This document shows, piece after piece, positions 25,256-64,000 of a stretch of 64,000 nucleotides of DNA. The notes under the pieces were generated by a model. The model saw only the letters and a list, made by a program, of their open reading frames with translations. It did no database searches and had not been told where the DNA came from. Each line of letters begins with the position of its first letter. Within the stretch, counting starts at the first letter, position 1. Position numbers and translations under genes: made by a program. Source of the DNA: an uncultured Gaiellaceae bacterium. GTDB taxonomy: Bacteria > Actinomycetota > Thermoleophilia > Gaiellales > Gaiellaceae. The stretch is taken from the NCBI GenBank assembly GCA_963794385.1, contig CAWCDT010000002.1, forward strand, positions 160,596 through 224,595, given 5' to 3'.

Positions 25256-25678
25256 GTGGAGCAGCGTGTCAGCCTGGTCACGCTGGGCGTCAGGGATCTC
25301 CCACGCGCGCGAGCCTTCTACGAGGCGCTCGGCTGGACGACCGGCGCCGCGCCGGACGACGACGTCGTCTTCTTCCAGGCCGGCGGGATGATTCTCGCGC
25401 TCTGGGGCCGGGACGACCTCGCGGCGGACAGTGGCGTTGACGACACCGGGGGCTGGGGAGGTGTCACCCTGGCCCACAACGTGCGTTCGCCGGCCGAAGT
25501 GGACAGGGTGCTGGCCGAGGCCGAGGGAGCGGGAGCGACGATCCCGAGACGCGGCGCCGAGACCTTCTGGGGCGGCTACTCGGGTGTCTTCGTCGACCCG
25601 GACGGCCATCCGTGGGAGGTGGCCCACAACCCGCACTGGACGATCCGGGACGACGGCTCGGTCGAGCTGGCCAAGTAA
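25256..25678 (+). CDS. VOC (glyoxalase/bleomycin resistance) family protein
   Basis: 140 aa. VSLVTLGVRDLPRARAFYEALGW and VFVDPDGHPWEVAHNP. Its stop codon lies inside palindrome copy 1. Confidence 0.85.
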   Translation: MEQRVSLVTLGVRDLPRARAFYEALGWTTGAAPDDDVVFFQAGGMILALWGRDDLAADSGVDDTGGWGGVTLAHNVRSPAEVDRVLAEAEGAGATIPRRGAETFWGGYSGVFVDPDGHPWEVAHNPHWTIRDDGSVELAK

Positions 25679-25694
25679 CAGTCTGTTACTTGGC
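25670..25694. repeat. AT-rich palindrome, copy 1 (GCCAAGTAACAG-T-CTGTTACTTGGC)
   Basis: Perfect 12+1+12 inverted repeat read directly. It contains the TAA of the VOC gene (25676-25678) and the reverse-strand TAA of the next gene (25686-25688). Confidence 0.95.
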
Positions 25695-26663
25695 GGCCGC
25701 TCGGAGGACGCGCAGGGCGTTCAGCGTCAGCATCTCGCTCGGGCCTGAGCCCCAGTCGACGACCTCGATGTTGCTGCCCTTCGATCCCGGCGGTCGCCAC
25801 CAGCGCCCACCCGCGCGCCAGCGGCCGTCCCGGAGGCGCCGTTCCTCGACTAGCGCGATCCCGTCGGCTGCGCGCGGGTCCCCGGCCAGTCCCATCCGAG
25901 CGAGGACGAGGAGCGCCTGGAGCACGTCGTAGTGCCAGAACGGTGGATAGTGCAGCGTGACGAACGACGAATGGATCGGCTCCCCGGTCGCGAGCGTCCG
26001 GAAGAGCCGATGCTCGAGGAAGAGCTCTGCCGTCCGCTCGGCCGCATCCTTCGCCGCAGGCTCCCCGGTTGCGGCCCAGTACTCGTGCAGCCCCCACATC
26101 GGGGGCAGCGACTCGTTGAACGAGGAGCGGTAGCCGCTGGCCTTCTTGTCGCAGTTCCAGCCGCCGTCCGGCCACTGCCACTCGACGAGCGAATCGGCAA
26201 GCAACCGGACGCGCGGATCGTGCGCCAGTCCGAGCCGGCAACAGACCGCCAGCGCGTTTCCCTCCTGTGAGCCGCACCGCCGGGTGAGGCCGTTGATCGA
26301 CTGGATGCGGTCGCGATGACCCTTCCCGGTCAGCCACGCGAGCACCTGCTCGGTCGCGGCGACGCAACGCGGCTCGCCGGCGGGGACGCCGAGCTCGACG
26401 AGCGAGACGAGCCGCCAGTGCGCGCCGCCCCACTTGCCGTAGGCGTGCACGCCGAAGCCACCGTCGGGTCGCTGACCCGCGAGCAGTGCCCGGGCCTTCG
26501 GCCCCTCGAGCACGTGTGCGGCCTCGGGTGGCTCCCGCTCGCCGAGGAGGTCTCGCTTCGTCTGGAAGACGATCCCGGGCTCATCCGAGTCGAGGAGCCA
26601 ATCGACCGCAGAGGCCGTGACGACGCGATCTTCCTTGAGTTCCATGACGGTCCTGTAACACAT
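25686..26663 (-). CDS. prenyltransferase / terpene-cyclase-like alpha-alpha toroid repeat protein
   Basis: 325 aa with repeated QW-like motifs (GQRPDGGFG, WQWPDGGWN, LRDGRWRAGG) and regularly spaced aromatic and Gly residues. The specific family is not identified. Confidence 0.6.
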   Translation of the reverse strand: MCYRTVMELKEDRVVTASAVDWLLDSDEPGIVFQTKRDLLGEREPPEAAHVLEGPKARALLAGQRPDGGFGVHAYGKWGGAHWRLVSLVELGVPAGEPRCVAATEQVLAWLTGKGHRDRIQSINGLTRRCGSQEGNALAVCCRLGLAHDPRVRLLADSLVEWQWPDGGWNCDKKASGYRSSFNESLPPMWGLHEYWAATGEPAAKDAAERTAELFLEHRLFRTLATGEPIHSSFVTLHYPPFWHYDVLQALLVLARMGLAGDPRAADGIALVEERRLRDGRWRAGGRWWRPPGSKGSNIEVVDWGSGPSEMLTLNALRVLRAAAK

Positions 26664-26683
26664 CGCGCGACTACCCTTCGGCC

Positions 26684-27448
26684 GTGAAGAAGCGGCTGGA
26701 CGTTCTTCTGGTCGAGCGCGGGCTTGCGGAGAGCCGCGCGCAGGCGCAGGCGCTCGTGCTCGCGGGCCTCGTTCCCGGCTACGACAAGCCGGGCCACCAG
26801 GTCTCCGAGGACGCGCAGCTCGCGGTCGAGCGGCCGCCCCGCTTCGTCTCGCGCGGGGGCGAGAAGCTCGCGAACGCGCTCGAGCAGCTCGAGCTCGAGC
26901 TGGACGGCCGCGACGCGATCGACCTCGGCGCCTCGACGGGTGGCTTCACCGACTGCCTGCTCCAGGGCGGCGTCGGCCGCGTCGTCGCGGTGGACGTCGG
27001 CTACGGCCAGCTCCATCCGAAGCTCCGCAACGACCCGCGCGTGACCGTGCTGGAGCGGACGAACGCACGCGAGCTCACGGAGCTCCCGTTCCGCCCTGAT
27101 CTGCTCGTCTGCGACGTCTCGTTCATCAGCGTGAGGCTCGTGCTGCCGCCCGTCGTCCCACTGCTCGAGCCCGGCTACGACGCGCTCGTGCTCGTGAAGC
27201 CCCAGTTCGAGGCCGGTCGCGAGGAGGTCGGGAAGGGCGGCGTCGTCCGGGACCCGGAGGTCCATCGGCGCGTCCTCCGCGAGGTCGTCGAGGCGGCGCT
27301 CGGCTGGGGTGCCACTGCGGTGGGAGTCGTAGACTCCGGACTGCCCGGACCGAAGGGCAACCGCGAGTTCTTCGTCCATCTGATCGACCGCGACGACCCC
27401 GTGCTCCTGGATGACATCGACGACCGGATCCGAGACGCTGTCCGCTGA
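26684..27448 (+). CDS. tlyA: TlyA family rRNA 2'-O-ribose methyltransferase
   Basis: S4 domain (KKRLDVLLVERGLAESRAQAQALV), FVSRGGEKL, DLGASTGGFTDCLLQGG, and DVSFIS. Confidence 0.9.
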   Translation: MKKRLDVLLVERGLAESRAQAQALVLAGLVPGYDKPGHQVSEDAQLAVERPPRFVSRGGEKLANALEQLELELDGRDAIDLGASTGGFTDCLLQGGVGRVVAVDVGYGQLHPKLRNDPRVTVLERTNARELTELPFRPDLLVCDVSFISVRLVLPPVVPLLEPGYDALVLVKPQFEAGREEVGKGGVVRDPEVHRRVLREVVEAALGWGATAVGVVDSGLPGPKGNREFFVHLIDRDDPVLLDDIDDRIRDAVR

Positions 27449-28274
27449 AGCCGTGAAGCGCGCTGCCGTCGTCACGCACGGCAAGCCGCAGGAGATCGGC
27501 TCCGCGCTCGCCCGCCTGGCGACGGTTGCACGAGAGGCCGGCGTGGAGCTGCACATGAGCGAGGGGGAGACGGAGAAGCACGGTCTGGAGCCGGAGCAGG
27601 AGGACGCGACCGACGTCGACATCGCGGTCGTGCTCGGCGGCGACGGGACGATGCTGCGCGCGCTCAACCGCTTCCTGGGCACCGACGTGCCGGTGATCGG
27701 CGTCAACTTCGGCCGGGTCGGCTTCCTGTCGTCGATCCCCCGCGACGAGCTCGAGACGGGGCTCGCCCGGGTCTTCGCCGGCGACTACCGCGTCGAGCAG
27801 CTGCCGACTCTCGACGTCGAGGTGGGCGAGGAGCGCCGGGTCGCGGTCAACGACCTCGTCGTCTCGAGCGCGATCGTCGGCCGGATGATCCACCTCGAGT
27901 GGGCGGTCGGCGGCGAGGCGCTCGGCCGACTCGCCTGCGACGGCGTCGTCTGCGCGACCCCCTCCGGCTCGACGGGCTACAACTTCTCGAACGGCGGCCC
28001 CGTGCTCGTCTGGGGCCTCGACGCAATGTCGGTGACGTTCGTCGCGCCGCATTCGGTGAACGCACGGCCGCTCGTCGTCCCGCGCAGCTCCGAGCTGCTC
28101 GTGTGGAACCGCACACCAGACGTGCCGGCCACCGCACTCGTGGACGGGCACCGCGTCGCCGACCTGCCGCCGGGCGGACGGGCCGTCGCCCGCGTCGGAG
28201 ACAAGCGATCGCTGCTCGCCACCGTGCCGGGGATCACCTTCTTCAGCCGCTACCGGCGGGCCTTTGCTTCGTAG
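27411..28274 (+). CDS. nadK: NAD kinase
   Basis: GGDGTMLRA, NFGRVGFL, ATPSGSTGYNFSNGGP. An alternative GTG start at 27453 would remove the 38-nt overlap with tlyA. Confidence 0.9.
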   Translation: MTSTTGSETLSAEAVKRAAVVTHGKPQEIGSALARLATVAREAGVELHMSEGETEKHGLEPEQEDATDVDIAVVLGGDGTMLRALNRFLGTDVPVIGVNFGRVGFLSSIPRDELETGLARVFAGDYRVEQLPTLDVEVGEERRVAVNDLVVSSAIVGRMIHLEWAVGGEALGRLACDGVVCATPSGSTGYNFSNGGPVLVWGLDAMSVTFVAPHSVNARPLVVPRSSELLVWNRTPDVPATALVDGHRVADLPPGGRAVARVGDKRSLLATVPGITFFSRYRRAFAS

Positions 28275-40407: not shown

Positions 40408-41852
40408 TCCGGCCCGCCGAGCTGATCGAGCGGAAGCGGAACGGGGAGGAGCTGCCGGCCGAAGAGATCGCCGCGCTGATCCTCGGCTATGCGCGGGGCG
40501 AGGTTCCCGACTACCAGCTCGCCGCGTTCTGCATGGCCGTCTACTTCCGCGGTATGACCGCCGCGGAGACGTACGCGCTCACGGACGCGATGATCCGCAG
40601 CGGCCGCACGCTCGACCTCGGCGGCGCGCTGGGGCGCAAGGTCGTCGACAAGCATTCGACCGGCGGGGTCGGGGACAAGACGACGATCGCGGTCGGCCCC
40701 ATCGTCGCCGCGTGTGGCGTCCCGGTCGGCAAGATGAGTGGCCGCGGGCTCGGCCACACCGGCGGCACGCTCGACAAGCTCGAGTCGATCCCCGGCTACG
40801 AGGTCGAGCTCCCGGTCGACGACTTCGTCTCGCAGGTCAAGGACGTCGGGCTCGCAATCGTCGGCCAGACCGACGACCTCGTCCCGGCCGACAAACAGCT
40901 CTACGGCCTCCGCGACGTGACAGCGACGGTCGACATCCTGCCGCTGATCGCCTCATCGATCATGTCGAAGAAGATCGCCGGCGGCGCGGATGCGATCGTG
41001 CTCGACGTCAAGGTCGGCGACGGTGCGTTCATGAAGACGCTCGACGACGCGCGCTCGCTCGCGGAGGCGATGCTCGAGCTCGGCGAGCGGGCGGGCCGCG
41101 AGGTCGTCTGTCTGCTGACCGACATGGACCAGCCCCTCGGCGCCGCCGTCGGCAACGCGCTCGAGATCGTGGAGGCGCGCGACACCGTGTGCGGGGAGGG
41201 ACCTGCGGACTTCACCGAGCTCGTCCTGGACGCATGCGCCCGATTGCTGGCCCTCTCGGATCTCGGCGTCGACGTCGACGAGGGTCGTCGCCGCGCCGAG
41301 GCCGCGGTCGCCGACGGATCAGCGCTCGCGCTCTACGAGCGCTGGATCCGGGCGCAGGGCGGCGATCCGGACCCCGCCGCGTTGCCGCGGGCTCCGGTCG
41401 TCCTGCCGGTCGAGGCGCCGCGGGGCGGCAGCGTGACCCGGCTCGGCGCGATCGCTGTCGGGATCGCGGCGTTGCATCTCGGCGCCGGGCGCCGCGCGAA
41501 AGGAGACGAGATCGACCACGCCGTCGGCGTCGTCTGCCACGTCAAGCGCGGCGCGCGCGTCGGTGCGGGCGACGTGCTCGCCGAGGTGCACGCGCGGGAC
41601 GAGGCGAGTGGGCAGGAGGCGGTGGAGGCCGTCCTCGCCGCCTACGACCTCGGCGACGAGCCTCCGCGCGACCGGACGCTCTCGATGGGCCTCTCGATCA
41701 GGCAGGAGTGTCCCGAGCGCGACCGCATCGGCCTCGAGCGTCCGGACGAGCGGATCCCCGACCTCGCCTGGATGGTCGTGCGGCTGCGCGCCTACGACCC
41801 GGCGATTCGCGGCCGTGTCACCTACCCGGCCTTCTTCCGCCGCCTCCGCCCG
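40404..41852 (+). CDS. pdp: pyrimidine-nucleoside (thymidine) phosphorylase. The ORF has no stop codon and continues in frame into mutM
   Basis: The GTG at 40404 overlaps the deoB stop. Motifs are DKHSTGGVGDKT, SGRGLGHTGGTLDKLE and SIMSKK. The homologous part ends near 41680. A 58-codon extension with coding-like GC3 then runs to the mutM ATG. Confidence 0.85.
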
Positions 41853-42683
41853 ATGCCTGAGCTTCCGGAGGTCGAGTCGATCAGGCGCTCGATCGCGCCG
41901 GTGCTGGAGGGCCGGAAGTTCGTCCGCGTCGAGATCGAGGATGCGCGCCTGACGCGGCCGGAGGATCCCGACGAGGTCGCGGCGGAGCTCACCGGCGAGC
42001 GCGTCGACCACGTCGACCGGCGCGGCAAGTACCTGATCCTTCGCTTCGCCTCCGGCCGCGCGCTGCTCATCCACCTGCGCATGACCGGGACGCTCTTACG
42101 GGAGCCGAGCGGGAGCACGCATATTCGCGCGGTCGTCGGGCTCGACGACGGCACGGAGCTCGGCTACCGAGACGTACGCCGCTTCGGCACCTGGCTCCTG
42201 CTCGAGCCGGGAGAGCTCGAGCCCTACCTCGGCACCCGAGTCGGCGGCGAGCCGCTCGTCGCCGCCTTCACCGCGAAGGGCCTCGGCGAGCGGCTGGAGG
42301 GCCGACGCGCGCCGCTGAAGTCCGCCCTGCTCGACCAGCGGACGCTTGCGGGGCTCGGGAACATCTACGTCGACGAGGCGCTGTGGTACGCGCGCCTGCA
42401 CCCGCTGCGACCGGCCGGCTCGCTCGACCGGAACGAGCTGCGGCGGCTGCACCGGGCGATCCGGCGCTCGCTCGAGCTCGGGATCGCCCGCCAGGGCTCG
42501 ACCCTGACGGATTACCGACTGCCGGACGGCAGCTCGGGCTCGATGCAGAAGGAGTTCAGGGCCTACGGCCGCACCGGCGAGCCCTGCGACCGTTGTGGCA
42601 CCATCCTGGCGAAGATCCGTGTCGCCGGCCGCGGCACGTGGTTCTGCCCGCAGTGCCAGCCCTCCCCGGCCGAAGCCAAGTAA
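41853..42683 (+). CDS. mutM: formamidopyrimidine-DNA glycosylase
   Basis: MPELPEVE N-terminus, the H2TH region LLDQRTLAGLGNIYVDEAL, and the zinc finger CDRCG...CPQC. Its stop TAA lies inside palindrome copy 2. Confidence 0.9.
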   Translation: MPELPEVESIRRSIAPVLEGRKFVRVEIEDARLTRPEDPDEVAAELTGERVDHVDRRGKYLILRFASGRALLIHLRMTGTLLREPSGSTHIRAVVGLDDGTELGYRDVRRFGTWLLLEPGELEPYLGTRVGGEPLVAAFTAKGLGERLEGRRAPLKSALLDQRTLAGLGNIYVDEALWYARLHPLRPAGSLDRNELRRLHRAIRRSLELGIARQGSTLTDYRLPDGSSGSMQKEFRAYGRTGEPCDRCGTILAKIRVAGRGTWFCPQCQPSPAEAK

Positions 42684-42699
42684 CAGTCTGTTACTAGGC
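42675..42699. repeat. AT-rich palindrome, copy 2 (GCCAAGTAACAG-T-CTGTTACTAGGC, one arm mismatch)
   Basis: Read directly. A replaces T at 42696, which turns the reverse-strand stop from TAA into TAG. Confidence 0.93.
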
Positions 42700-42948
42700 C
42701 GCGAGGCGCTCGTCGAGCGTGCCCGACTTGTCGAGCCGCCAGAGCTCGGTGTAGCCGCCCACAGGCGTGCCGTCGATCACGATCTGCGGCACGGTCCAGC
42801 CGCCCGTCAGCTCGTGGATGCGGGCGCGGAAGGCGGGATCGCCGTCGAGCGAGATCTCCTCGTACTCGATCCCCTTGTCGTCGAGGAGCGCCTTCGCCCG
42901 GACGCAGTAGCCGCACCAGCGGGTCGAGTAGATCTGGATCCGGCTCAT
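42694..42948 (-). CDS. glutaredoxin (NrdH/Grx-like)
   Basis: MSRIQIYSTRWCGYCVRAKALL with the CGYC active site, TVPQIVIDG, and GGY. I prefer the ATG at 42948 over the TTG at 42960. Confidence 0.85.
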   Translation of the reverse strand: MSRIQIYSTRWCGYCVRAKALLDDKGIEYEEISLDGDPAFRARIHELTGGWTVPQIVIDGTPVGGYTELWRLDKSGTLDERLAA

Positions 42949-43012
42949 GTGGGGGTGCAACGTAGCGGAAGCCCGATCGGGTTCCGTCGCGGGCGCGGCC
43001 TAGACTCGGAGG

Positions 43013-45573: not shown

Positions 45574-46404
45574 GTGAACACCGCGCGCGAGGTCGTCGAG
45601 CTCCACATCGTCTCCGATTCGACCGGAGAAACCGCTGCGCGCCTGGTCGCGGCGCTCGAGGCGCAGTTCCCGGAGCAGCCGTTCGAGGAGGTGCGGCATC
45701 CCCAGATCGAGACGCTCGACGACCTCCGGCTCGCCGTCAGCCGGGCGAAGGGCCGGCCCGCCGTGATGGTGTACACGCTCGTCGACCGCGGCCTGCGCGA
45801 GTCGATGCGCTCGCTCTGCCGCAGCGGCCGCCTCCACTACTGCGACCTGCTCGGACACCCGATCGAGTCGATCGCGAAGGTGTCGGGGATGGCCGCGAAG
45901 ATGAAGCCGGGCGCGCGACCGCCCCTCAACTCCGCCTACTTCAAGCGGATGGAGGCGATCGAGTTCGCGGTCAAGCACGACGACGGCGTCGGCAGCGGCC
46001 TGCCCGACGCGGACGTCGTCCTCGTCGGCGTCTCACGCACGTCGAAGACGCCGCTCTCGATCTACCTCGGCTACCTGGGCCACAAGGCGGCGAACGTGCC
46101 GGTCGTGAAGGGGATCAAGCCGCCCTCGGAGCTCTATTCGATCGATCCGCTCAAAGTCGTTGGCCTGACGATTGACGCCCAGCGGCTGGCGGAGATCCGC
46201 TCCGCGCGCGTGCGCGGGATGGGCGGTGAGAACCGGCAGTACGCGGGCCTCGTCGAGATCTACGACGAGCTCGAGCAGGCCGCCGCGCTGCATCGGCGCC
46301 TGGGCTGCCCGGTGATCGACGTCACCGGCCTCTCGATCGAGGAGACGGCCCACCGCGTCGTCCGCCTGGTCGACCGGCGGCGGCAGGGAGCGCGTGCGAC
46401 CTGA
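45574..46404 (+). CDS. pyruvate, phosphate dikinase regulatory protein (PDRP, kinase/pyrophosphorylase)
   Basis: 276 aa. HIVSDSTGETA, the P-loop VLVGVSRTSKTPLSIYL, and DVTGLSIEETA. Confidence 0.9.
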   Translation: MNTAREVVELHIVSDSTGETAARLVAALEAQFPEQPFEEVRHPQIETLDDLRLAVSRAKGRPAVMVYTLVDRGLRESMRSLCRSGRLHYCDLLGHPIESIAKVSGMAAKMKPGARPPLNSAYFKRMEAIEFAVKHDDGVGSGLPDADVVLVGVSRTSKTPLSIYLGYLGHKAANVPVVKGIKPPSELYSIDPLKVVGLTIDAQRLAEIRSARVRGMGGENRQYAGLVEIYDELEQAAALHRRLGCPVIDVTGLSIEETAHRVVRLVDRRRQGARAT

Positions 46405-46576
46405 GAGCGGGAAGCCTCCGGTGCCGGCCTGGCGCTGGGGCGTGTGGTGGCTCATCCTCGGCGCGGCCGTCGTCGTCTTCTACGTGCTCCTGACGCCGCT
46501 CTGGCTCGGCCTCCGGGCCGCGGCGTGGGCGGCCGAGTGGCGCTCGAGGCGGCGGAGGGCCGCGCCGAGCGACTGA
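46394..46576 (+). CDS. possible 60-aa membrane protein (weak call)
   Basis: It has a TM-like stretch, WWLILGAAVVVFYVLLTPLWLGL. It overlaps the 3' end of the LigD-Pol gene on the opposite strand by 97 nt and has no homology support. Confidence 0.25.
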   Translation: MRPESGKPPVPAWRWGVWWLILGAAVVVFYVLLTPLWLGLRAAAWAAEWRSRRRRAAPSD

Positions 46577-47424
46577 CCGCCGGCGAGCACCGGCTCGAAG
46601 AGGTCGCCCTCCTTCTCGACCCGCCGCAGCACGGCCTCGATCGTGAACCGGCCCGGGTCGAGCTTCGGCGTCACCTCCTCCCAGCGGAGCGGCGTCGACA
46701 CCGGCGCGCCCTCCTTCGGCCGCACCGAGTAGGCGGAGGCGATCGTCTTGCCGGCGCCGTTCTGGTGGTAGTCGATGAGGACGCCGACGCGCTTCCGCTT
46801 CAGCCACTCGGTCGTGACGACCCCGGGGTTCTCGGCGGCAAGCCGTTTCGAGACGAGCTCCGCGAAGCGGTGGGTGTCCGGGAACGAGTACCGGCGCGTC
46901 ACGGGCACGAGGATGTGAATGCCCTCCGAGCCGCTCGTCTTCACGTACGAGCGGAGCTCGAGCTCCTCGAGCACCGTGCGCACGAGCAGGGCCGCCTTGA
47001 TCCCCAGCCGGAACTCGCCGTCCGGCGGGTCGAGGTCGAAGAGGACGAAGTCCGGCCGCGTCGGCTTGTCGACGCGCGAGTACCAGGCGTTCATGTCGAC
47101 GCAGTTCATCTGCACCATCCAGAGGACCGCCTCGGGCGAGTTGAGCAACGGGAAGTCGACGAGCCGTGACTCTCCTTTGCGCGGATAGGTCCGGAACTGC
47201 CGCGTCGGGATCCAGTCCGGCATGCCTTTCGGCGCCTGCTTCTGGAAGTACGCCTCGCCGTGGATGCCGTGGGGCCAGCGCTTCATCGTGAACGGCCGGT
47301 CACGGAGATGCGGCACGAGGACGGGCGCGATGCGGCCGTAGTAGTCGAAGAGGTCGCCCTTCGTGAGCCCGCTCTCGGGGTAGAGGACGCGCTCGGCGCT
47401 CGTGAGCCTCACCTCGCGGGCCAT
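46480..47424 (-). CDS. stand-alone NHEJ polymerase/primase domain protein (LigD Pol domain)
   Basis: 314 aa. VLYPESGLTKGDLFDYY, FDLDP, KTSGSEGIHILVP, and IDYHQNGAGKTIASAYSVR. No ligase domain, nuclease domain or Ku gene nearby. Confidence 0.88.
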   Translation of the reverse strand: MAREVRLTSAERVLYPESGLTKGDLFDYYGRIAPVLVPHLRDRPFTMKRWPHGIHGEAYFQKQAPKGMPDWIPTRQFRTYPRKGESRLVDFPLLNSPEAVLWMVQMNCVDMNAWYSRVDKPTRPDFVLFDLDPPDGEFRLGIKAALLVRTVLEELELRSYVKTSGSEGIHILVPVTRRYSFPDTHRFAELVSKRLAAENPGVVTTEWLKRKRVGVLIDYHQNGAGKTIASAYSVRPKEGAPVSTPLRWEEVTPKLDPGRFTIEAVLRRVEKEGDLFEPVLAGGQSLGAALRRLERHSAAHAAARRPSQSGVRST

Positions 47425-47460
47425 GCCGCCGAGTATGGCAAGACGGGGCGGCCGGCTCGG

Positions 47461-47483
47461 CCAAGTAACAGACTGTTACTTGG
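47461..47483. repeat. AT-rich palindrome, copy 3 (CCAAGTAACAG-A-CTGTTACTTGG)
   Basis: Read directly. It lies 36 nt upstream of the LigD-Pol start codon and contains the stop (reverse TAA, 47476-47478) of the kinase-like gene. Confidence 0.95.
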
Positions 47484-48001: not shown

Positions 48002-48675
48002 AGGAGCCGAGCCTCCAGCGGCTCCTCGCCGTGGCGTGTGACCCGGTAGCCGCGGGCGCCCTCGCGCTGGCTCACGAGCTCGCGCAGCTCGGTGCCTTCG
48101 AAGCAGAACGCCGCGTCGTCGTCGGCGGCGTAGCCGGCCGGAAGCGTTCCCTCGGCGACGAGCCGCGTAAATGCAGGCCGCCGCTCCGGCTCGCCGTCGT
48201 AGTGCGGGCAGAAGCTCCCCGAGAGGAGGCCGAGGCCGCCGCCGAGCGGGCGCAAACTGGGCCCGAACGAGTCGGTGACCGAGTCCTCGAACCAGCAGTT
48301 TGCGCCGGCGCTCATCCCGCCGAGGACGGCGCCGCGCTCCCAGGCAGCGCGGAGCGCGCGGTCGACCCCGTGCACACGCCAGATCGCGAGCATGTTCGCC
48401 GTGTTGCCGCCGCCGACGTAGATCACGTCCTGCCGGGCGACGTGCGCCGCGGGCTCCTCCGGCATGCCGAACAGCTCGAGGTGACTCGGCTCGCACCCAC
48501 GTCCGCGGAAGGCCTCGTAGAAGAGCTCGACGCGCTCGGGGAGGTGCGCCGACGCGGTGCCGACGTAACAGACCCTCGGTCGCTTCGACCCAGCAAGCTC
48601 GAGCATGAGCTCGTCGATCCGCGATTCAGGGTGGAGCAGCGCCCCGCCGCCCATGGCAAGGATCTGGCCGGCCAC
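47998..48675 (-). CDS. peptidase E (S51 family dipeptidase)
   Basis: ILAMGGG, VIYVGGGNTANML, and the nucleophile context LGGMSAGANCW. I chose the GTG at 48675 (alternative ATG at 48654), because the ORF upstream of it overlaps the ppdK start. Confidence 0.8.
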   Translation of the reverse strand: MAGQILAMGGGALLHPESRIDELMLELAGSKRPRVCYVGTASAHLPERVELFYEAFRGRGCEPSHLELFGMPEEPAAHVARQDVIYVGGGNTANMLAIWRVHGVDRALRAAWERGAVLGGMSAGANCWFEDSVTDSFGPSLRPLGGGLGLLSGSFCPHYDGEPERRPAFTRLVAEGTLPAGYAADDDAAFCFEGTELRELVSQREGARGYRVTRHGEEPLEARLL

Positions 48676-48699
48676 CGGCCGAGTGTAGATTCCGCGCCG

Positions 48700-51294
48700 A
48701 TGCGCTACGTCTACGCCTTCGACGAGGACTCCGGCGGCGGCCGCGAGCTCCTGGGGGGAAAGGGGGTCGGGCTCGCGGAGATGACCGCGCTCGGCGTCCC
48801 GGTGCCGGCCGGCTTCACGATCACGACCGACGCCTGCCGGGCCTACATGACGGCCGGCGGGGAGCTTCCGGACGGGCTCACGGCCGAGGTCGCCGAGCAC
48901 ATCGCCGCGCTCGAGACCAAGGCGGGTAAACGCTTCGGTGACACGGGCGACCCGCTGCTCGTCTCGGTCCGCTCCGGCGCAGCCGTCTCGATGCCCGGGA
49001 TGATGGACACGATCCTCAATCTCGGCCTAGGGGACGACGCCGTCGCGGGCGTCGCGAAGACGACCGGGAACGAGCGCTTCGCGAACGACTCCTACCGCCG
49101 CCTGATCCAGATGTACGGCGAGGTTGTCGACGGGGTCGACGGGCATCGGTTCGAGCAGGCGCTCACCGACCTGAAGTCGTCGCGAGGCGTGAAGCAGGAC
49201 GTCGAGCTCTCGGCCGCGGATCTCGGCGAGCTGGTCGAGACGTTCAAGCAGATCTACGCCGAGGAGACGGGCGGCCCGTTCCCGCAGGACGCACACGCGC
49301 AGCTCGAGAAGGCCGTCCGGGCCGTCTTCGACTCGTGGGACGCGCCGCGCGCGCAGGTCTACCGGCGCACCTACGACATCCCCGACGACCTCGGTACGGC
49401 CGTCAACGTCGTGCAGATGGTCTTCGGCAACAAGGGCGACGGCTCCGGCACAGGCGTCTGCTTCACGCGCGACCCGGCGACCGGCGAGCACCGCCTCTAC
49501 GGCGAGTTCCTGCAGAACGCACAGGGCGAGGACGTCGTCGCCGGAATCCGGACGCCGGAGCCGATCACGCGCATGGAGGAGCTCCTTCCGGACGCCTACG
49601 GACAGCTGCTCGACACCATCCGTCGCCTCGAGGAGCACTACCGCGACATGCAGGACATCGAGTTCACGGTCGAGGACGGCACGCTCTTCCTGCTCCAGAC
49701 GCGCACCGCGAAGCGCACCGCGGCGGCGGCCCTGCGCGCCGCGGTCGAGATGGTCGACGAGGAGCTGATCTCGAAGGAGGAGGCGGTCGCGCGGATCGAT
49801 CCTGCGCAGCTCGACCAGCTCCTCCACCCGATGATCGACCCGTCGGCCGACGTCGAGGTAGTGGCGAAGGGCCTGAACGCCTCTCCGGGAGCAGCGTCGG
49901 GCGCGATCGTCTTCGACGCAGACACGGCAGAGGAGCGGGGCAAGGCGGGAGAGAGCGTCATCCTCGTCCGCTGGGAGACGACTCCGGACGACTTCCACGG
50001 CATGGTGCAGGCGGCCGGGATCCTGACCGCGCACGGCGGCCTCACCTCGCATGCGGCCGTCGTCGCGCGCGGCATGGGCACGCCCTGCGTCACGGGCTGC
50101 GAGGCGCTGCACGTGGACGCCCGGGCGAAGACGGCCCGGCTGCCCGGGCACGAGCTGAAGGAGGGCGACACGATCACGATCGACGGCGGCACCGGCGAGG
50201 TGATCGTCGGGGCGGTCCCGCTCGTGGCGCCGAAGCTGAACGACGACTTCACCACCGTCCTCGGCTGGGCGGACGGGATCCGCCGCCTGAAGGTGCGCAC
50301 GAACGCGGACACGCCCGAGGACGCGGCCAAGGCGCGCGAGTTCGGGGCCGAGGGGATCGGCCTGTGCCGGACCGAGCACATGTTCGCCGACGCGGAGCGG
50401 CTCCACCTGATGCGGGAGATGATCCTCGCGGCCGACGAGGACGGCCGCCGGACCGCGCTCGAGCAGCTCCTGCCGATCCAGCAGGGCGACTTCGAGGGGA
50501 TCTTCGAGGCGATGGCCGGCCTGCCGGTGACGATCCGGCTCCTCGACTGGCCGCTGCACGAGTTCCTGCCCTCGCTCGAGGAGGCGAGGGACGAGCGGCT
50601 GCGCGAGCGGATTCGGGCGCTCCAGGAGTCGAACCCGATGCTCGGCTGGCGCGCCTGCCGGCTCGGCCTCTCCTTCCCGGAGATCTACGAGATGCAGGTG
50701 CGCGCGATCGTGCGTGCGGCGCTCGCAGTGCGCGAGCGGACCGGTGCGGCGCCGCTCGTCGAGGTGATGCACCCGCTCGTCGGCTTCGGCGAGGAGCTGC
50801 GGCGGCTGCGCGAGCTGACCGTGCGCGTCGCGGCCGAGGAGGGAGAGCTCGAGTACAGCGTCGGCACGATGATCGAGCTGCCGCGGGCGTGCGTGCGCGC
50901 CGACGAGATCGCGGAGCACGCCGACTTCTTCTCCTTCGGCACGAACGACCTGACCCAGACCGCGCTCGGGATCTCCCGCGACGACGGCGGCCGCTTCCTC
51001 GCCCAGTACCTCGAGTCAGGCGTGCTCGAGCGCGACCCGTTCGAGACGATCGACCAGGAGGGCGTCGGCGACCTGATGGAGCTGGCGGTCGAGCGCGGCC
51101 GCGGCGTGCGGGCAGACCTCAAGCTCGGCATCTGCGGCGAGCACGGCGGCGAGCCGAAGTCGGTCGCTTTCTGTCACCGGCTCGGGCTCGACTACGTGTC
51201 GTGCAGCCCCTACCGCGTCCCGCTCGCCCGCCTGGCCGCGGCGCAGGCCGCGCTCGCCGAGCAGGGTGTCAGCGCGGTTGCGATCGGCGGCTAG
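48700..51294 (+). CDS. ppdK: pyruvate, phosphate dikinase
   Basis: 864 aa from the ATG at 48700. N-terminus MRYVYAF...GGKGVGLAEM. The catalytic His context is GGLTSHAAVVARGMG. The PEP-utilising TIM domain has GLCRTEHMF and SFGTNDLTQ. Confidence 0.96.
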   Translation: MRYVYAFDEDSGGGRELLGGKGVGLAEMTALGVPVPAGFTITTDACRAYMTAGGELPDGLTAEVAEHIAALETKAGKRFGDTGDPLLVSVRSGAAVSMPGMMDTILNLGLGDDAVAGVAKTTGNERFANDSYRRLIQMYGEVVDGVDGHRFEQALTDLKSSRGVKQDVELSAADLGELVETFKQIYAEETGGPFPQDAHAQLEKAVRAVFDSWDAPRAQVYRRTYDIPDDLGTAVNVVQMVFGNKGDGSGTGVCFTRDPATGEHRLYGEFLQNAQGEDVVAGIRTPEPITRMEELLPDAYGQLLDTIRRLEEHYRDMQDIEFTVEDGTLFLLQTRTAKRTAAAALRAAVEMVDEELISKEEAVARIDPAQLDQLLHPMIDPSADVEVVAKGLNASPGAASGAIVFDADTAEERGKAGESVILVRWETTPDDFHGMVQAAGILTAHGGLTSHAAVVARGMGTPCVTGCEALHVDARAKTARLPGHELKEGDTITIDGGTGEVIVGAVPLVAPKLNDDFTTVLGWADGIRRLKVRTNADTPEDAAKAREFGAEGIGLCRTEHMFADAERLHLMREMILAADEDGRRTALEQLLPIQQGDFEGIFEAMAGLPVTIRLLDWPLHEFLPSLEEARDERLRERIRALQESNPMLGWRACRLGLSFPEIYEMQVRAIVRAALAVRERTGAAPLVEVMHPLVGFGEELRRLRELTVRVAAEEGELEYSVGTMIELPRACVRADEIAEHADFFSFGTNDLTQTALGISRDDGGRFLAQYLESGVLERDPFETIDQEGVGDLMELAVERGRGVRADLKLGICGEHGGEPKSVAFCHRLGLDYVSCSPYRVPLARLAAAQAALAEQGVSAVAIGG

Positions 51295-58251: not shown

Positions 58252-59436
58252 ATGATCGCCTGTTTGCTCATTCCCGGCTTCGAGTTGCGCGCAGCGCTGC
58301 GGGAGAAGCCGAGGCTGGCGCTCGAGCCCGCCGCGCTCGCGCCGCTGCCGGGCACGGAGCCGCTCGTCGGCCCGGTCACCGCCGCCGCCGAGCTGGCGGG
58401 CGTGCAGCCGGGGATGCGAATGGGAGAGGCGCTCGCGATGTGCCCGCGGCTCGTGCTCGTCGAGCAGGATCCGGGAGCGGTCGAGCGCGAGTGGGAGGGA
58501 GTGCTGCGTCGGCTCGAGGACTCCGGCTTCGCGGTCGATCCCGAAGAGCCGGGCCGCGTCTACTTCGAGACGAAGGGAGTCGAGCGGCTGTACGGAGGCC
58601 TGGTGCCGGCGCTCGAGCGGGCGCTCGCCTCGGTCGGGGCTGCCTGGGATCCGCGCGTCGGCGCCGCGCAGCGCCGGTTCGCCGCTCTCGCGGCGGCGAG
58701 CGTCGCGCGTCTCGGGCAGGCGCTCGTCGTGTCGGCCGGCAACGAGGAGGACTTCCTGGCGCCTCTGCCGCTCTCGCTCCTGCCGCTCCCGGCCGATCGC
58801 TACGCGGAGCTGGAGGGCCTGGGCGTGCGCCGGCTTGGGGAGCTGGCCGCCCTGCCCGGGGGAGCAGTCGCGGAGCGGCTCGGCCGGGAGGGCCGGCAGG
58901 CGTGGGGGCTTGCGCGCGGCGGGGAGAAGGGCCGCGTGCACGGGCGGCGGCAGGCGGCCGAGCTCGCCGAGGCGCTCGAGTTTCCGGAGGCGGTCGGGAA
59001 CGAGCTGACGCTCCGGCGCGCGTTCGGGGCGCTGCTCGACCGGCTGCTGGCGCGGCCGGAGCGGGCGGGGCGGCCGCTGCGGAAGGCGGCGCTCTCGGCG
59101 CGGCTCGTCGGCGGTGGCTCCTGGCGGCGGACCGTGACCTTGCGTGAGCCGACGGCCGAGCGGCCGCGGCTTCGCGCGGCTCTGGGGCCCAAGTTGCTCG
59201 AGATCCCGGGGCCCGTCCTCGAGTTGCGCCTGGAGGCGGTCGAGCTCTCGGCCTCGGTCGGGCAGCAGCTGGAGCTCGTCAAGCCGGTCGGCGACGAGCT
59301 GAACGCGCGCCTGAGCGACGGGTTGCGCCAGGTGCGCGCGAGCACCGGCTCCGGCTCGGTCGTCGCGGTCGTGGAGGTGGCGCCGTGGTCGCGGATTCCC
59401 GAATCCAGGGCGCTGTTCGTTCCTCGAGACGAATGA
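58252..59436 (+). CDS. imuB: ImuB, a Y-family DNA polymerase-like mutasome subunit
   Basis: 394 aa. MIACLLIPGFELRAAL starts like the ImuB/DinB palm but lacks the acidic catalytic DxxxFxxxxE pattern. It is preceded by LexA boxes and dnaE2 lies downstream. Confidence 0.82.
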   Translation: MIACLLIPGFELRAALREKPRLALEPAALAPLPGTEPLVGPVTAAAELAGVQPGMRMGEALAMCPRLVLVEQDPGAVEREWEGVLRRLEDSGFAVDPEEPGRVYFETKGVERLYGGLVPALERALASVGAAWDPRVGAAQRRFAALAAASVARLGQALVVSAGNEEDFLAPLPLSLLPLPADRYAELEGLGVRRLGELAALPGGAVAERLGREGRQAWGLARGGEKGRVHGRRQAAELAEALEFPEAVGNELTLRRAFGALLDRLLARPERAGRPLRKAALSARLVGGGSWRRTVTLREPTAERPRLRAALGPKLLEIPGPVLELRLEAVELSASVGQQLELVKPVGDELNARLSDGLRQVRASTGSGSVVAVVEVAPWSRIPESRALFVPRDE

Positions 59437-59553: not shown

Positions 59554-59594
59554 CTAGTACCGCGGGACGAATAAACGCTCCACGACCGGCGTTG

Positions 59595-59798: not shown

Positions 59799-59804
59799 GC
59801 GATG

Positions 59805-59827
59805 CCAAGTAACAGACTGTTACTTGG
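59805..59827. repeat. AT-rich palindrome, copy 4 (CCAAGTAACAG-A-CTGTTACTTGG)
   Basis: Read directly. It starts 7 nt after the stop of the small imuB-associated gene and contains the stop (reverse TAA, 59820-59822) of the TfoX-like gene. Confidence 0.95.
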
Positions 59828-60137: not shown

Positions 60138-60157
60138 GCGCCGAGTCTACGCCTGGA

Positions 60158-60808
60158 TCACGAGCTGTGTGCGGGCGTCTCAGCCGTCGGAGGCTGCTCG
60201 GAGAAGTCTGCGCAGACGAGATCGAGACGCAGGCCGACGGACAGGCCGAGCTCGCGGAGCTCCTCGGGCTCGTAGAGACGCAGTGGAACGAATCCCGACT
60301 GCGATCCGTGTAGTAGAGCGTCGTTCGCAGGCGGTTCCCTCGATGCGCCTGCTCTCACTCACGCCGCGGTTGTCTCCTCGGCCCTGGTGCGTGCGGAAGA
60401 ACGCAGGGGTGTAGAGATCGAGCACGAGTGTGTCTTTGTCTTTGCACCCATCGACGCGAAGACGTCGGCGTTCGTCTCGTAGTCGAACGAGCGGAAGCTG
60501 GCCCACATGCAGATCACGGCAGAGAACGAGCGCGAAACCTCATCCAGCCGCCGCACGTCGACCTCGTGGACATCGACGCCGCAGGCACGCGCTTCGGCGG
60601 CGACAGAGGGGTCGCGCTCGACTGCGGTCACGCGATACGAGTGCCTCGCGAGCGCTTGCGCGTGTCGGCCGAAGCCGCAGGGAACGTCGAGAACCGTAGA
60701 CGGAGGCGATGGCAGCACCCGGAAGAGGAAGTCGACCTCGCGCGCAGTCTCCGCAGAGTCGCGTCGTCAGAACGTCGCGAACCATGCCGGCGAGAAGGTC
60801 GGCTCCAC
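60158..60808 (-). pseudogene. class I SAM-dependent methyltransferase, decayed (one in-frame TGA and two frameshifts)
   Basis: From the GTG at 60808 the gene reads VEPTFSPAWFATF, then an in-frame TGA (60767-60769). It continues RRDSAETAREVDFLFRVLPSPPSTVLDVPCGFGRHAQALA...VICMW. The frame changes near 60430 (DTLVLDLYTPAFF) and again near 60350 (RLYEPEELRELGLSVGL). Confidence 0.72.
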
Positions 60809-60817
60809 GACGTCGAG

Positions 60818-61636
60818 CTAGGCGGGCTCCTGGTGGAAAGCCGCCCGTGCCGCCGCGAGCTCTCCTCGTCGCGGGCGGCGTGGAGTGCGCGGACGAAGTC
60901 GCGGAAGCCGCAGGTCGGCGCGTGGACGTTCAGGAAACGCGCCTCCTCGGACGCGGTGGGCGCGAACGTGTGCGGCACGTTAGGCGGCACCTGCACACAA
61001 GAGCTGGCGGTGGCGCGCAGCTGCTGACCGCCGGCCGTGACCTCGAGCGCACGGCGAGGACGTAGATACGATCGGGTGAGCCGGTTCAGATGCCTTGGCA
61101 GCCGGCTCGTCCCTCACCTCGATTCGAATCTCGTCCCGTCGACGTCAGCGAGCAGGCCCCTCACCGACGCTGACGATCGGCGAGTACTCGCCGTCCGGTC
61201 CATCGGCCGGGTCGGCCGCCGTCCGCAGGCGGATCCTCGGAGTCGAAGCCGGGCGTCACACCGCGCAGGTAGTCGGCGAAGCCGCCGCCGGGAGCGTGGA
61301 AGTTGAGGTAGCGCACTTCCGCATCGCTCCCGTTGCGGAAGCCGTGGACGACGAGCGGCGGCGCAAGCACGAGCGATCCGGCTGGAAGAACGGTCTCGCG
61401 CCGCTCGGGGCCGACCAGGACCGTCAGCTCGCCCGCGAGGACGAAGAAGAGATCGCTGTGGTTGCGGTGCACATGCGGGCTCGCACCGTCGAGGCCGGCG
61501 CCCATTCGAGACCACGGGCGCACAGCTCATCGTGGTCGCAGAGAATCTCGAGCCGCCGGTTCTCGGAGTCGCGAACGACCTCGCCCTCGCCGGGGCGTAG
61601 GAGGAGCGGTTGGGCTACGTCGAGCTCCATTGCCAT
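60818..61636 (-). pseudogene. bicupin protein gene, heavily decayed (at least 7 frame changes)
   Basis: Two cupin halves can be assembled only by hopping frames. The first half is MAMELDVAQPLLLRPGEGEVVRDSENRRLEILCDHDEL / RMGAGLDGASPHVHRNHSDLFFVLAGELTV...YLNFHAPGGGFADYL. The second half is LLADVDGTRFE / IRIEVRDEP / DRIYVLA / LEVTAGGQQL...VPPNVPHTF...FLNVHAPTCGFRDFVRALHAARDEE / ELAAARAAFHQEPA, ending at the stop at 60818. Confidence 0.6.
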
Positions 61637-64000
61637 TCAGCGTATTCCTTTCTCGACGGGGCATCGCATCCCGAGGAGCTCGCCCTGCAGGCCGCCGAGC
61701 TCGGCTACGAGGCGCTCGCGCTCACCGACCACGAGGGGGTCTACGGCTCGCTCGAGCTCGCGCACGCGGCCAAGCTCCTCGGCGTCCGCGCGATCACCGG
61801 CGCCGAGGTGACGCTGGACGGCGGTTCTCACGTGACGCTCCTGGTCGAGTCGCCGCAGGGTTACGCGAACCTCTGTCGGCTCCTCACGGCCGCGCACGCG
61901 CACACACGGCCGAAGGAAGGGGAATTGTTGTCGCCGGCCCTCGACCCAGGGCTCCTCGCGGAGCTGAACGAGGGGCTCGTCTGCCTCTCCGGCTGCGCCC
62001 GGCAGGGGCTCGGCGTTCGCGACCCGAACGCCGCCGTGACGCTCGCCCGCGCGTTCGGACCGGAGCGCTTCTATGTCGAGCTGCAACGGCCGTTCGAGCG
62101 CGGCGACGCGCGCCGGAACGTGCTCCTGCGCGACCTCGCCGAGCACGCGGGGGTGCAGACAGTGGTCACCGGCAACGTCCACGCCCACCATCAGCGCCGG
62201 ACGGCGCTCCAGGACGTGCTCGTCGCGATCCGCCACCGCGCCTCGCTCGAGTCGTGCGAGGCGGAGCGGCGCGGGAACCGCGAGTGCATCCTGCGCGCGC
62301 CGGCGGAGATGCTCGAGCTCTTTCCGGACGATCGCGACGCCGTCCTGCGCACGGGGGAGGTGGCGGCGCGGCTCGAGTTCGACCTGACCGCGGAGCTCGG
62401 CTACCGCTACCCCGACTTCGCCGACGGGGAGGAGCCGGCGATCCGCCGCCTCGCCCAGGTCTGTGAGGACGCGTTCTCGGAGCGCTACCCGCCAAGTAAC
62501 AGACTGTTACTTGGCGCCGCTCGGGCACGGCTCGAGCAGGAGCTCAAGCTGATCGACGTGCTCGGGCTGGCCGGCTTCTTCCTCCTCCACTGGGAGGTGC
62601 TCGAGCTGGCGCGGGAGCTCGCGAACGGGATCCGCGGGCCCGGCTCGCCGCGCCGCTTCTTGCCGCCCGGGCGGGGGCGCGGCTCGTCGGTCGGCTCGAT
62701 CGTCTGCTACCTGACCGGCCTCTCGCACGTCGATCCGGTCGCGCAGAACCTCTCGCTCGGCCGCTTCCTGAACCGGGAGCTCGCCTCGGTCCCGGACATC
62801 GACCTCGACTTCCCGCGCGACATCCGGGAGCAGCTGATCGTCGCCGTCACTGAGCGCTACGGCCGCGAGCACGCCTCGCTCGTCGCGAGCTTCTCCACCT
62901 ACCGCGCCCGCGGCGCGATTCGCGATGTCGGCAAGGCGCTAGGGCTCCCGTTCGCCGAGCTGGAGCGGCTGGCGCGCGTCTCGGACGGCTGGAACGCGAA
63001 GAAGGTCGCCGACGAGCTCGCGCTCTTGCCCGAGGCGGAGCGGCGGCTGCTCTCCCCGCGCTGGCGTGCGTTCGCGGAGCTGACCAGAGAGATCGCGGGG
63101 TTGCCGCGGCACATCTCGCAGCATCCCGGCGGGATGGTGATCTCGTCGCGTCCCCTCATCGAGCTCGTGCCGGTGCAGCCAGCAGCGATGGCCGGCCGCC
63201 AGCTCTGCCAGTGGGACAAGGACTCGTGCTCCGACGCCGGCTTCCTCAAGATCGACCTGCTGGGGCTGGGAATGCTCTCCGCGGTCGAGGACTGCGTCGA
63301 GCAGATCGCCGAGGTCTACGGCGAGCCGATCGACCTGACCCGGATCCCACTCGACGACCCGGACGTCTACGCCGAGATCCAGCGCGCCGACACGATCGGC
63401 GACTTCCAGATCGAGAGCCGCGCGCAGATGCAGAGCCTGCTTCGGACGAAGCCGGAGAACCTCGACGACCTGACCGTGCAGGTCGCGCTCGTCCGGCCGG
63501 GGCCGATCCAGGGCAAGGCCGTTCACCCCTACATCGACGCGCGCGAGCGGCTCCGAGTCGACCCGGGCTACGTGCCCCCGGTCGACCACGAGCTCCTTCG
63601 GGAACCGCTCCGCGAGACGCACGGCGTCGTCGTCTTCCAGGACCAGGTGCTCGACGTGGCGATGGTGCTCGCCGGCTTCACGATCGGCGAGGCGGAGGGG
63701 CTACGCCGCGCGATGAGCAGGAAGCGGAGTGAGGAGGCGATCGAGGCGTACCGGGAGCGGTTCATCGAGGGCGCTGCGGCGAACGGCGTCGATGCGGAGA
63801 CGGCCGACGAGGTCTACGACAAGCTGGCGGGGTTCTCCGGCTTCGGCTTCCCGAAGTCGCACGCGGCCGCCTTCGGCCTCCTGGCCTACCAGTCGGCCTG
63901 GCTGCGCCACCACTATCCCGCGGAGTTCCTCTGCTCGCTCCTCAACGCCCAGCCGATGGGCTTCTACCCGCCCTCTTCGCTCGTTCGGGACGCGCAGAGA
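61610..64000 (+). CDS. dnaE2: error-prone DNA polymerase III alpha subunit DnaE2 (ImuC), 5' part; continues beyond the window
   Basis: TTG at 61610, preceded by an in-frame TAG and by GGAGGAG 4 nt upstream. It has the PHP domain MGYVELHCHSAYSFLDGASHPEEL...LTDHEG and the palm/fingers motifs IDLDFP, HPGGMVIS, KIDLLGLGMLS and FPKSHAAAF. The frame is open to base 64000. It is absent from the ORF track because no stop falls inside the window. Confidence 0.92.
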   Translation, partial: MGYVELHCHSAYSFLDGASHPEELALQAAELGYEALALTDHEGVYGSLELAHAAKLLGVRAITGAEVTLDGGSHVTLLVESPQGYANLCRLLTAAHAHTRPKEGELLSPALDPGLLAELNEGLVCLSGCARQGLGVRDPNAAVTLARAFGPERFYVELQRPFERGDARRNVLLRDLAEHAGVQTVVTGNVHAHHQRRTALQDVLVAIRHRASLESCEAERRGNRECILRAPAEMLELFPDDRDAVLRTGEVAARLEFDLTAELGYRYPDFADGEEPAIRRLAQVCEDAFSERYPPSNRLLLGAARARLEQELKLIDVLGLAGFFLLHWEVLELARELANGIRGPGSPRRFLPPGRGRGSSVGSIVCYLTGLSHVDPVAQNLSLGRFLNRELASVPDIDLDFPRDIREQLIVAVTERYGREHASLVASFSTYRARGAIRDVGKALGLPFAELERLARVSDGWNAKKVADELALLPEAERRLLSPRWRAFAELTREIAGLPRHISQHPGGMVISSRPLIELVPVQPAAMAGRQLCQWDKDSCSDAGFLKIDLLGLGMLSAVEDCVEQIAEVYGEPIDLTRIPLDDPDVYAEIQRADTIGDFQIESRAQMQSLLRTKPENLDDLTVQVALVRPGPIQGKAVHPYIDARERLRVDPGYVPPVDHELLREPLRETHGVVVFQDQVLDVAMVLAGFTIGEAEGLRRAMSRKRSEEAIEAYRERFIEGAAANGVDAETADEVYDKLAGFSGFGFPKSHAAAFGLLAYQSAWLRHHYPAEFLCSLLNAQPMGFYPPSSLVRDAQR
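62490..62516. repeat. AT-rich palindrome, copy 5 (CGCCAAGTAACAG-A-CTGTTACTTGGCG), inside dnaE2
   Basis: Read directly. In the dnaE2 frame it reads P-P-S-N-R-L-L-L-G without a stop. Confidence 0.95.

Follow-up and report, generated by a model that had tools for sequence, protein, structure and literature searches.

Among described bacterial repeat systems, the closest analogue in logic to the element considered here appears to be the association of repetitive extragenic palindromic (REP) sequences, and of the REP doublets forming hairpins (REPINs), with REP-associated tyrosine transposases (RAYTs). In REPIN-RAYT systems, the partner gene is flanked by the repeats, inheritance is mostly vertical, the location is conserved within clades, and the repeats are long-lived (bioRxiv 10.1101/2021.07.10.451892). 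The present analysis concerns a 23-bp palindrome that occurs five times in a 64,000-nucleotide stretch of DNA from an uncultured Gaiellaceae bacterium (GenBank assembly GCA_963794385.1, contig CAWCDT010000002.1, positions 160,596 to 224,595; hereafter the window), and a family of proteins of about 95 residues whose gene lies between two copies of this palindrome in related genomes. The palindrome is probably the cognate DNA site of this small-protein family; if so, an unannotated orphan family is paired with a precise DNA site, which makes its function directly testable. The Gaiellaceae are abundant soil actinomycetes that are known almost wholly from metagenome-assembled genomes (MAGs).

A palindrome and the gene it brackets

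An exact-pattern scan of 185,579 species-representative genomes yielded at least 118 loci (8 kb each; cited here by L numbers). In five of the listed loci, two palindromes 350-390 bp apart enclose an open reading frame (ORF) of a single protein family; with tblastn, the count rises to 7 of the 118. Six further loci that were found via the protein (L119-L124) represent three contexts, sufBD/methyltransferase, LigD Prim-Pol/response regulator, and metK/dtxR, and contain exactly two palindromes each in 16-20 kb: the first precedes the start codon by 60 bp, and the second is placed at the stop. An independent test is provided by 80 metagenome loci (L125-L204) that were collected via the protein and not via the palindrome: the upstream palindrome precedes the start by ~60 bp in all 78 assessable loci, and the downstream palindrome is found at the stop, or within ~60 bp after it, in 77 of 78; no further copies occur in the 341 kb that these 80 loci cover. 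The ~60 bp between upstream palindrome and start in L125-L204 contain a leader or promoter sequence whose conservation is clade-specific (ACACGGTTTCGGCACGAAGCCGTGAC... in the metK/dtxR clade, TCTCTTTCGTTTCATCTTGCGCGCC... in another clade). Among the listed pattern-found loci there is one module per MAG, and the small gene looks to be single-copy.

Clustering resolves the family into at least 1,180 groups (90% identity) or 434 (50% identity); its members always stand alone, are about 90-130 residues long, and are all labelled "hypothetical". The bracketed proteins measure ~95 residues (91-110) and are basic, with a median isoelectric point of 10. No family matches were found in Pfam, NCBIfam or PHROGs, or by sequence profile against the PDB, and the family alignment contains no conserved His-hydrophobic-His motif. 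The invariant residues (R7, R18, R31, R44, P45, Y47, E48, R51, R58) include six arginines and the motif R44-P45-(S46)-Y47-E48. An AlphaFold2 model (predicted local distance difference test score, pLDDT, of 83) consists of five helices with a helix(26-40)-Gly41-turn-helix(47-59) arrangement, and points to a helix-turn-helix (HTH)-like fold. The family is most likely restricted to the lineage of Gaiellaceae soil bacteria and previously undescribed.

Site and protein covary. The conserved unit of the palindrome has an 8-5-8 layout, CWWGTAAC-AGWCT-GTTACWWG. In a distant subfamily (P0390-like, L205-L208), which shares the N-terminal ~60 residues and differs at the C-terminus, the gene adjoins aconitase and is bracketed likewise by different palindromes: CTTGTGAC-GGAGC-GTCACAAG in L205, CTTGTGGC-TTAGA-GCCACAAG in L206 and L207, and CTAGTGGC/CTTGTGGC-N5-GCCACGAG in L208. 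The 8-5-8 layout and a CWWGT..C frame are common to these P0390-like sites and to CAAGTAAC-AGWCT-GTTACTTG, and the start of helix 3 shifts in parallel, from S-Y-E-Q-V-R to S-Y-(V/D)-H-V-R-R. Taken together, the invariable linkage of gene and palindromes, the conserved architecture of the bracket, and this covariation make direct recognition of the site by the small protein the best-supported reading.

The bracketed gene changes its surroundings in a manner that suggests a cassette formed by the gene and one palindrome. In L015, a prenyltransferase-like gene is followed by palindrome, small gene, palindrome and a VOC gene; in the window (palindrome 1) and in L060, these two flanking genes enclose only one palindrome. 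In L122, the small gene and its two palindromes stand between a LigD Prim-Pol gene and a response regulator; L005 and L105 match the L122 flanks at 78-88% identity and carry one palindrome that aligns to both bracket copies. The modules of L122 and L015 are 80.6% identical and reside in unrelated contexts. Overall, 85 modules fall into about 17-18 contexts, and since each context is common to several lineages, inheritance appears to be mostly vertical, with occasional relocation. This polymorphism between bracketed and solo states offers a simple system for studying the recombination and persistence of short palindromes.

Solo sites in the window and in related genomes

All five window copies are solo sites, with no partner gene between two palindromes (Table 1). 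Their number and positions had been given correctly in a first-pass annotation of the window: a search with the pattern CCAAGTAACAGWCTGTTACTTGG returned exactly these five matches, four perfect and one with a single mismatch, where the expected number is zero. Allowing up to 3 mismatches added no further match, 100 dinucleotide shuffles of the window gave none, and a scan of the window to 8 mismatches revealed no degenerate copies above chance and no lone 11-mer half-sites. The G+C content of the window is 0.69-0.74, yet 13 of the 23 palindrome bases are A or T.

Table 1. Palindromes and adjoining features of the window, and variable genes beside palindromes in related loci
Feature	Locus	Coordinates	Strand	Remarks
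VOC/glyoxalase-family gene	window	25256..25678	+	PF00903; C-terminus ...ELAK-stop inside palindrome 1
Palindrome 1	window	25671..25693		solo, perfect, centre T; between convergent genes; TAA at 25676-25678 is the stop of the VOC/glyoxalase gene (+), TTA at 25686-25688 the stop of a 325-aa ORF (-)
Fpg/Nei DNA glycosylase gene	window	41841..42683	+	PF01149, PF06831, PF06827; ...AEAK-stop ends in palindrome 2, whose TAA (42681-42683) is the stop
Palindrome 2	window	42676..42698		solo, 1 mismatch (T21->A); between Fpg (+) and glutaredoxin (-) genes
Glutaredoxin gene	window	42694..42960	-	abuts palindrome 2; stop is TAG at 42694-42696, created by the single mismatch of palindrome 2
LigD Prim-Pol gene	window	46480..47424	-	immediately downstream of palindrome 3; indel in comparison to close relatives
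LigD Prim-Pol	window	46542-47458		variable segment against palindrome 3
Palindrome 3	window	47461..47483		solo, perfect, centre A; 36 bp upstream of LigD Prim-Pol gene start; provides stop (47476-47478) of a 141-aa ORF (-)
ImuB-like Y-family protein gene	window	58252-59436
Palindrome 4	window	59805..59827		solo, perfect, centre A; between convergent genes, downstream of imuB; provides stop (59820-59822) of a 105-aa ORF (-); a 137-aa ORF (+) stops 6 nt short of it
dnaE2-like (error-prone polymerase) ORF	window	61610..64000	+	holds palindrome 5; runs off window
Palindrome 5	window	62492..62514		solo, perfect, centre A; in frame within the intact dnaE2-like ORF, translated P-S-N-R-L-L-L-G
ParE toxin gene	L031	4808-5101		PF05016; variable gene against palindrome
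VOC protein gene	L022	6280-6720		variable gene against palindrome
73-aa ORF and HAD-like gene	L074	6237-6908		variable genes against palindrome
Methyltransferase-like gene	L116	5601-6599		variable gene against palindrome

Several other features of the window may be recorded here. Genes for DNA repair and mutagenesis (Fpg, LigD Prim-Pol, ImuB-like, DnaE2) are concentrated around its palindromes, which may be coincidence. The region of palindrome 3 is flanked by genes for a pyruvate phosphate dikinase (PPDK) regulatory kinase/pyrophosphorylase (45574-46404) and for PPDK itself (~48600-51294); the long plus-strand ORF listed as starting at 47260 is the latter gene, artefactually extended on its 5' side. 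A 6S/SsrS RNA gene occupies 6593-6740 on the minus strand (Rfam RF00013, 48.2 bits against a gathering score of 46.4).

The solo sites show a marked preference for gene ends. Flanking genes use the TAA of the palindrome, which is present on both strands, as their stop codon; the first-pass annotation had missed this, as it had the in-frame position of palindrome 5 within the dnaE2-like ORF. By the counts of a simple ORF caller based on G+C at third codon positions, which are approximate, called genes that point at a palindrome end at its own TAA in 62 of 115 cases (28 of 47 on the left, 34 of 68 on the right), and most of the remaining ones stop within 20 nt. Where both flanks were called (~41 sites), 17 sites lie between convergent genes, 24 between genes in tandem, and none between divergent genes; under a 1:2:1 expectation, the probability of finding no divergent pair is about 1e-5. 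The 120 flanking proteins matched 130 Pfam families, and no functional theme emerged among them. A few sites lie in frame inside ORFs (dnaE2 in the window, a methyltransferase gene in L085). Since the repeat supplies stop codons and sits in frame in genes of essential type, it matters for gene calling. Several single genes that close relatives lack adjoin palindromes, often with the stop codon inside the palindrome; of all such variable genes, the one for the small protein alone is palindrome-flanked at both ends. In L005, L027, L105 and L122, another, unrelated paralogue of LigD Prim-Pol (34% identity) likewise abuts a palindrome; two independent loci for LigD Prim-Pol are too few to interpret.

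Orthologous loci show both conservation and turnover of solo sites between species. At the position of palindrome 2, L048 has neither the palindrome nor the glutaredoxin gene, and L065 has a copy with 3 mismatches. Palindrome 3 is kept in L065, L048, L007 and L055; the ~0.9-kb LigD Prim-Pol segment beside it is absent from the latter three. For palindrome 4, L043 and L051 represent true empty sites, where two convergent genes overlap; the filled sites are longer by 35 bp in the window and by 32 bp in L109, the added sequence consisting of the palindrome and a second, diverged ~9-bp copy of the overlap, and both convergent ORFs stay intact. The ~9-bp repeat looks like a target duplication, although this single case is only suggestive; a convincing target-site duplication was not seen at L063/L006. 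Palindrome 5 is identical, including its centre, in L043, L051, L109 and the window, while the flanks differ by ~10%. In other DnaE2 relatives, a linker of the same length is either unrelated (SGLNGHKRR) or decayed (CNRLLQG, SNTLLQA, SNKLLLA), and the equal length of these linkers led to rejection of a clean 24-bp insertion into dnaE2. In L085, a palindrome at 2369-2391 encodes QVTDCYL in frame, and alignment with a tandem methyltransferase paralogue (64% identical) pairs this stretch with RATEAYR without any gap; the second paralogue ends in another palindrome (3633).

Nearly all of the listed loci are labelled Gaiellaceae, Gaiellales, Thermoleophilia, Actinomycetota or "Actinomycetes". L105 (CAVTCB010000005.1) carries the label "uncultured Gemmatimonadales"; it is 78-89% identical to the Gaiellaceae loci L005 and L122 over ~3 kb and has probably been mis-binned or mislabelled. 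A phage or plasmid origin was not borne out: IMG/VR gave no matches, the small protein is absent from PLSDB, and site and protein are both missing from the phage and plasmid collections. A second independent site is present in only 4 of the 118 listed 8-kb loci, and ~460 kb of protein-found loci contain no sites other than the two bracket copies. These figures suggest a density in relatives of roughly one site per 150-250 kb; sites being this sparse elsewhere, the window with its five copies in 37 kb is unusually dense. The copy number per genome looks like tens, and the hundreds of copies that had been extrapolated from the window are not borne out.

Within the palindrome, positions 5-19 (GTAACAG-W-CTGTTAC) are nearly invariant, and degenerate copies vary at positions 1, 3, 4, 20, 21 and 23. 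The earlier observation that the flanks share no similarity holds for the alignment of 116 copies, with the extension that G is preferred at -1 (66%) and C at +24 (59%); the flanks also show a codon periodicity in phase with GCC-AAG-TAA. Beyond G(-1) and C(+24) they carry no information, and a larger repeat unit was therefore rejected. A variant of the centre triplet, GTAACAC-A-GTGTTAC, is found at both bracket sites in L161, L162, L168, L172 and L185, and at the downstream site only in L175.

Palindromes also occur as close pairs. In 28 of the 118 listed loci, the centres of two copies are separated by 49-79 bp, with peaks near 55, 66 and 77 bp (for example L032 7190/7245, L066 4050/4116 and L103 3158/3234). 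These spacings give a weak signal of helical phasing (p about 0.007), which is owed to the 55-bp class. The spacers are unrelated, the orientation of the centre base is mixed, and the L103 pair corresponds to a single site in L040. An origin of the short pairs as decayed gene modules was rejected; their spacers resemble neither modules nor one another.

What may read the palindrome

The evidence favours one of the explanations offered by the first-pass annotation, a binding site for a dimeric DNA-binding protein, and a specific candidate family can now be named for it. A homodimer of the small protein would read two 8-bp half-sites, CWWGTAAC, 5 bp apart, in successive major grooves. Since the gene is bracketed by two sites, the protein most likely binds both, and could in this way bring about autoregulation or insulation, possibly via a loop. 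Recombination of palindrome with palindrome might excise the gene as a circle and leave a solo site behind, and integration into a solo site would recreate the bracket; the matching centre triplets at both bracket sites would fit a crossover region, although other explanations are possible. As a best guess, solo sites could, when occupied by the protein, act as roadblocks or insulators where genes end; whichever role is assigned to them, confidence is low.

Several observations weigh against recognition of the palindrome by the small protein, or against parts of this mechanism. Binding is predicted from sequence association, and covariation between lineages would also arise if some other lineage-specific factor read the site. 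The best Foldseek hit has an E value of 0.26, and the HTH-containing matches (small terminase, the RcsB DNA-binding domain, TnpE) are non-significant. No change in the recognition helix, or other obvious change in the protein, was seen to accompany the GAC->CAG centre variant. The small partner gene was not found in this window and lies outside it; its presence in the genome of the window is suggested by close relatives, in that L086 belongs to the same MAG as L048, and L048 is 92% identical to the window. Solo sites at gene 3' ends and inside ORFs are misplaced for a plain transcription factor. With regard to the recombination steps, 23 bp is short for RecA-dependent recombination, and no recombinase or integrase linked to the sites was identified, either beside the modules or among the 30 window ORFs scanned, in agreement with the earlier remark that the window holds no transposase or integrase. 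Finally, in-ORF palindromes replace sequence of equal length, which is explained neither by insertion nor by cassette recombination.

Alternatively, the palindromes could be att-like recombination sites for a dedicated or host recombinase, Xer-like or integron-like, at which many kinds of single-gene cassette are inserted, with the small protein as an accessory or directionality factor or simply as the commonest cargo. The two cases of bracketed versus solo polymorphism would accord with such sites, and so would the variable single genes whose stop codon lies in the palindrome (ParE in L031, VOC in L022, the 73-aa ORF in L074, glutaredoxin, LigD Prim-Pol); the centre-triplet variant that is common to both bracket sites is what crossover matching would lead one to expect. 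Nevertheless we regard this explanation as unlikely: the sites have no linked integrase or recombinase gene, variable genes other than the small-protein gene are as a rule bordered by a single palindrome, and no palindrome is present at the empty site of the glutaredoxin gene; moreover, arrays are absent and several sites are stable at orthologous positions.

A bolder proposal dispenses with the external recombinase. The ~390-bp palindrome-gene-palindrome unit could be an autonomous mobile element whose protein itself promotes breakage and joining, or templated conversion; we give this a low probability. Should it be correct, no smaller recombinase or transposase would be known, mobile elements would have a new lower size limit, and the solo palindromes would be scars or landing pads, including the equal-length patches in ORFs. 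The related suggestion that the palindrome is an unusually short REP- or MITE-like mobile repeat (MITE, miniature inverted-repeat transposable element) stands in part: sites are gained and lost and the partner gene is repeat-flanked, but this gene encodes no Y1/RAYT protein, and the in-ORF copies are equal in length to what they replace.

In a classical regulon, the palindromes would be operators for the small protein or for another transcription factor, possibly one that controls DNA-repair genes. Perfect dyad symmetry and the copy upstream of the protein's own gene fit this scheme, as do the window sites near fpg, ligD Prim-Pol, imuB and dnaE2 (one of them 36 bp ahead of the ligD Prim-Pol start) and the second LigD Prim-Pol paralogue that also abuts a site. 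The distribution of the sites makes a regulon quite improbable all the same: none of the ~41 with both flanks called separates divergent genes, more than half of the genes pointing at them end at their TAA, some lie in ORFs, and the flanking proteins have no functional theme.

The location of sites at gene 3' ends and between convergent genes could also indicate an RNA or single-stranded DNA hairpin, acting independently of any protein as a bidirectional terminator or mRNA stabiliser. The predicted folding energy of -11 kcal/mol for the 23-mer, which falls to about -20 when flanks are included (z about -4.5 to -4.9), is compatible with such a structure. However, the A/U-rich stem is not followed by a U-tract, the palindrome matches no Rfam family, conservation of every base across hundreds of loci and species is more than a hairpin demands, and the strict linkage to one protein family would be left unexplained. 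Compensatory changes are lacking as well: among 115 distinct variants, 221 arm changes break pairing and 48 keep it, and the outer pairs vary independently, which argues against selection for a hairpin and in favour of two protein half-sites. The hairpin, which the first-pass annotation had also considered, is thus very improbable. Over-representation alone would speak for a DNA-uptake-type sequence or an assembly or adapter artefact, and the chance of either is negligible: uptake sequences occur as hundreds to thousands of single-orientation motifs, whereas the palindrome has no lone 11-mer half-sites and a low copy number and density, and MAGs from more than 10 independent projects, built from short or from long reads, carry the sites at orthologous positions.

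Comparison with known systems

Recognition by the small protein invites comparison with autoregulated repressors. LacI (O1/O2) and GalR (OE/OI) are autoregulated HTH repressors with two operators that loop the intervening DNA. The dyad operator with half-sites one helical turn apart and the second site ~350-390 bp from the upstream site are points of likeness, to which may be added the short site pairs elsewhere, with preferred spacings near 55/66/77 bp (a weak signal). In contrast to these repressors, the second site lies here behind the gene, at its 3' end, no dispersed sites were found in divergent promoter regions, and the small protein shows no homology to known repressor families. The parS/ParB, matS/MatP and NBS/Noc systems also combine a dimeric protein with tens of palindromes of 13-23 bp per chromosome, some of them intragenic, and the local cluster in the window (five in 37 kb) is reminiscent of them. 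The small protein is unrelated in sequence and fold to the proteins of these systems; its gene is bracketed and relocates, and its sites are gained and lost between close species.

Integron attC sites and pdif modules share with the present element a palindromic site at the 3' end of a single ORF, units that are present or absent, and a filled state of site-gene-site. They differ in that the palindrome is not associated with an IntI or Xer gene, forms no cassette arrays, and has at most one gene between two sites. An attC site is 57-141 bp long and imperfect, with RYYYAAC/GTTRRRY boxes and extrahelical bases; the palindrome is 23 bp long and perfect, and its GTTACTT does not fit GTTRRRY. The Xer site dif has 28 bp in an 11-6-11 arrangement, compared to 8-5-8 (or 11-1-11) here, where the sequence is symmetric apart from the centre base. 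MITEs, Correia elements and Rickettsia palindromic elements (RPEs) resemble the palindrome in their insertion at gene ends with a short target duplication, as in the empty and filled states of palindrome 4, and RPEs in particular in their in-frame copies inside ORFs. Unlike these elements, the in-ORF copies described here replace sequence of equal length and add no residues; to our knowledge, 23 bp is also several-fold shorter than any described MITE.

The REP/REPIN-RAYT systems share with the Gaiellaceae element short palindromes at gene 3' ends and in extragenic positions, and an apparently single-copy partner gene that is flanked by the repeats; mostly vertical inheritance, a location conserved within clades and long-lived repeats are further points in common. 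The partner, however, is an all-helical protein of ~95 residues without the Y1/HUH domain (Y1_Tnp, PF01797) of the RAYTs, and its gene relocates with one repeat. The palindrome is perfect and lacks a GTAG-type 5' tetranucleotide, it apparently occurs in tens instead of hundreds of copies, some of them in frame in ORFs, and the replicating unit is not a REP doublet. Since the Y1/HUH transposase is absent, and since the repeat differs in form and copy number, the element is not a member of the REP-RAYT group. The combination of a dispersed palindrome with a flanked partner gene has so far been tied to HUH transposases; if the small protein reads the palindrome as proposed, the same arrangement can also make use of a small DNA-binding protein.

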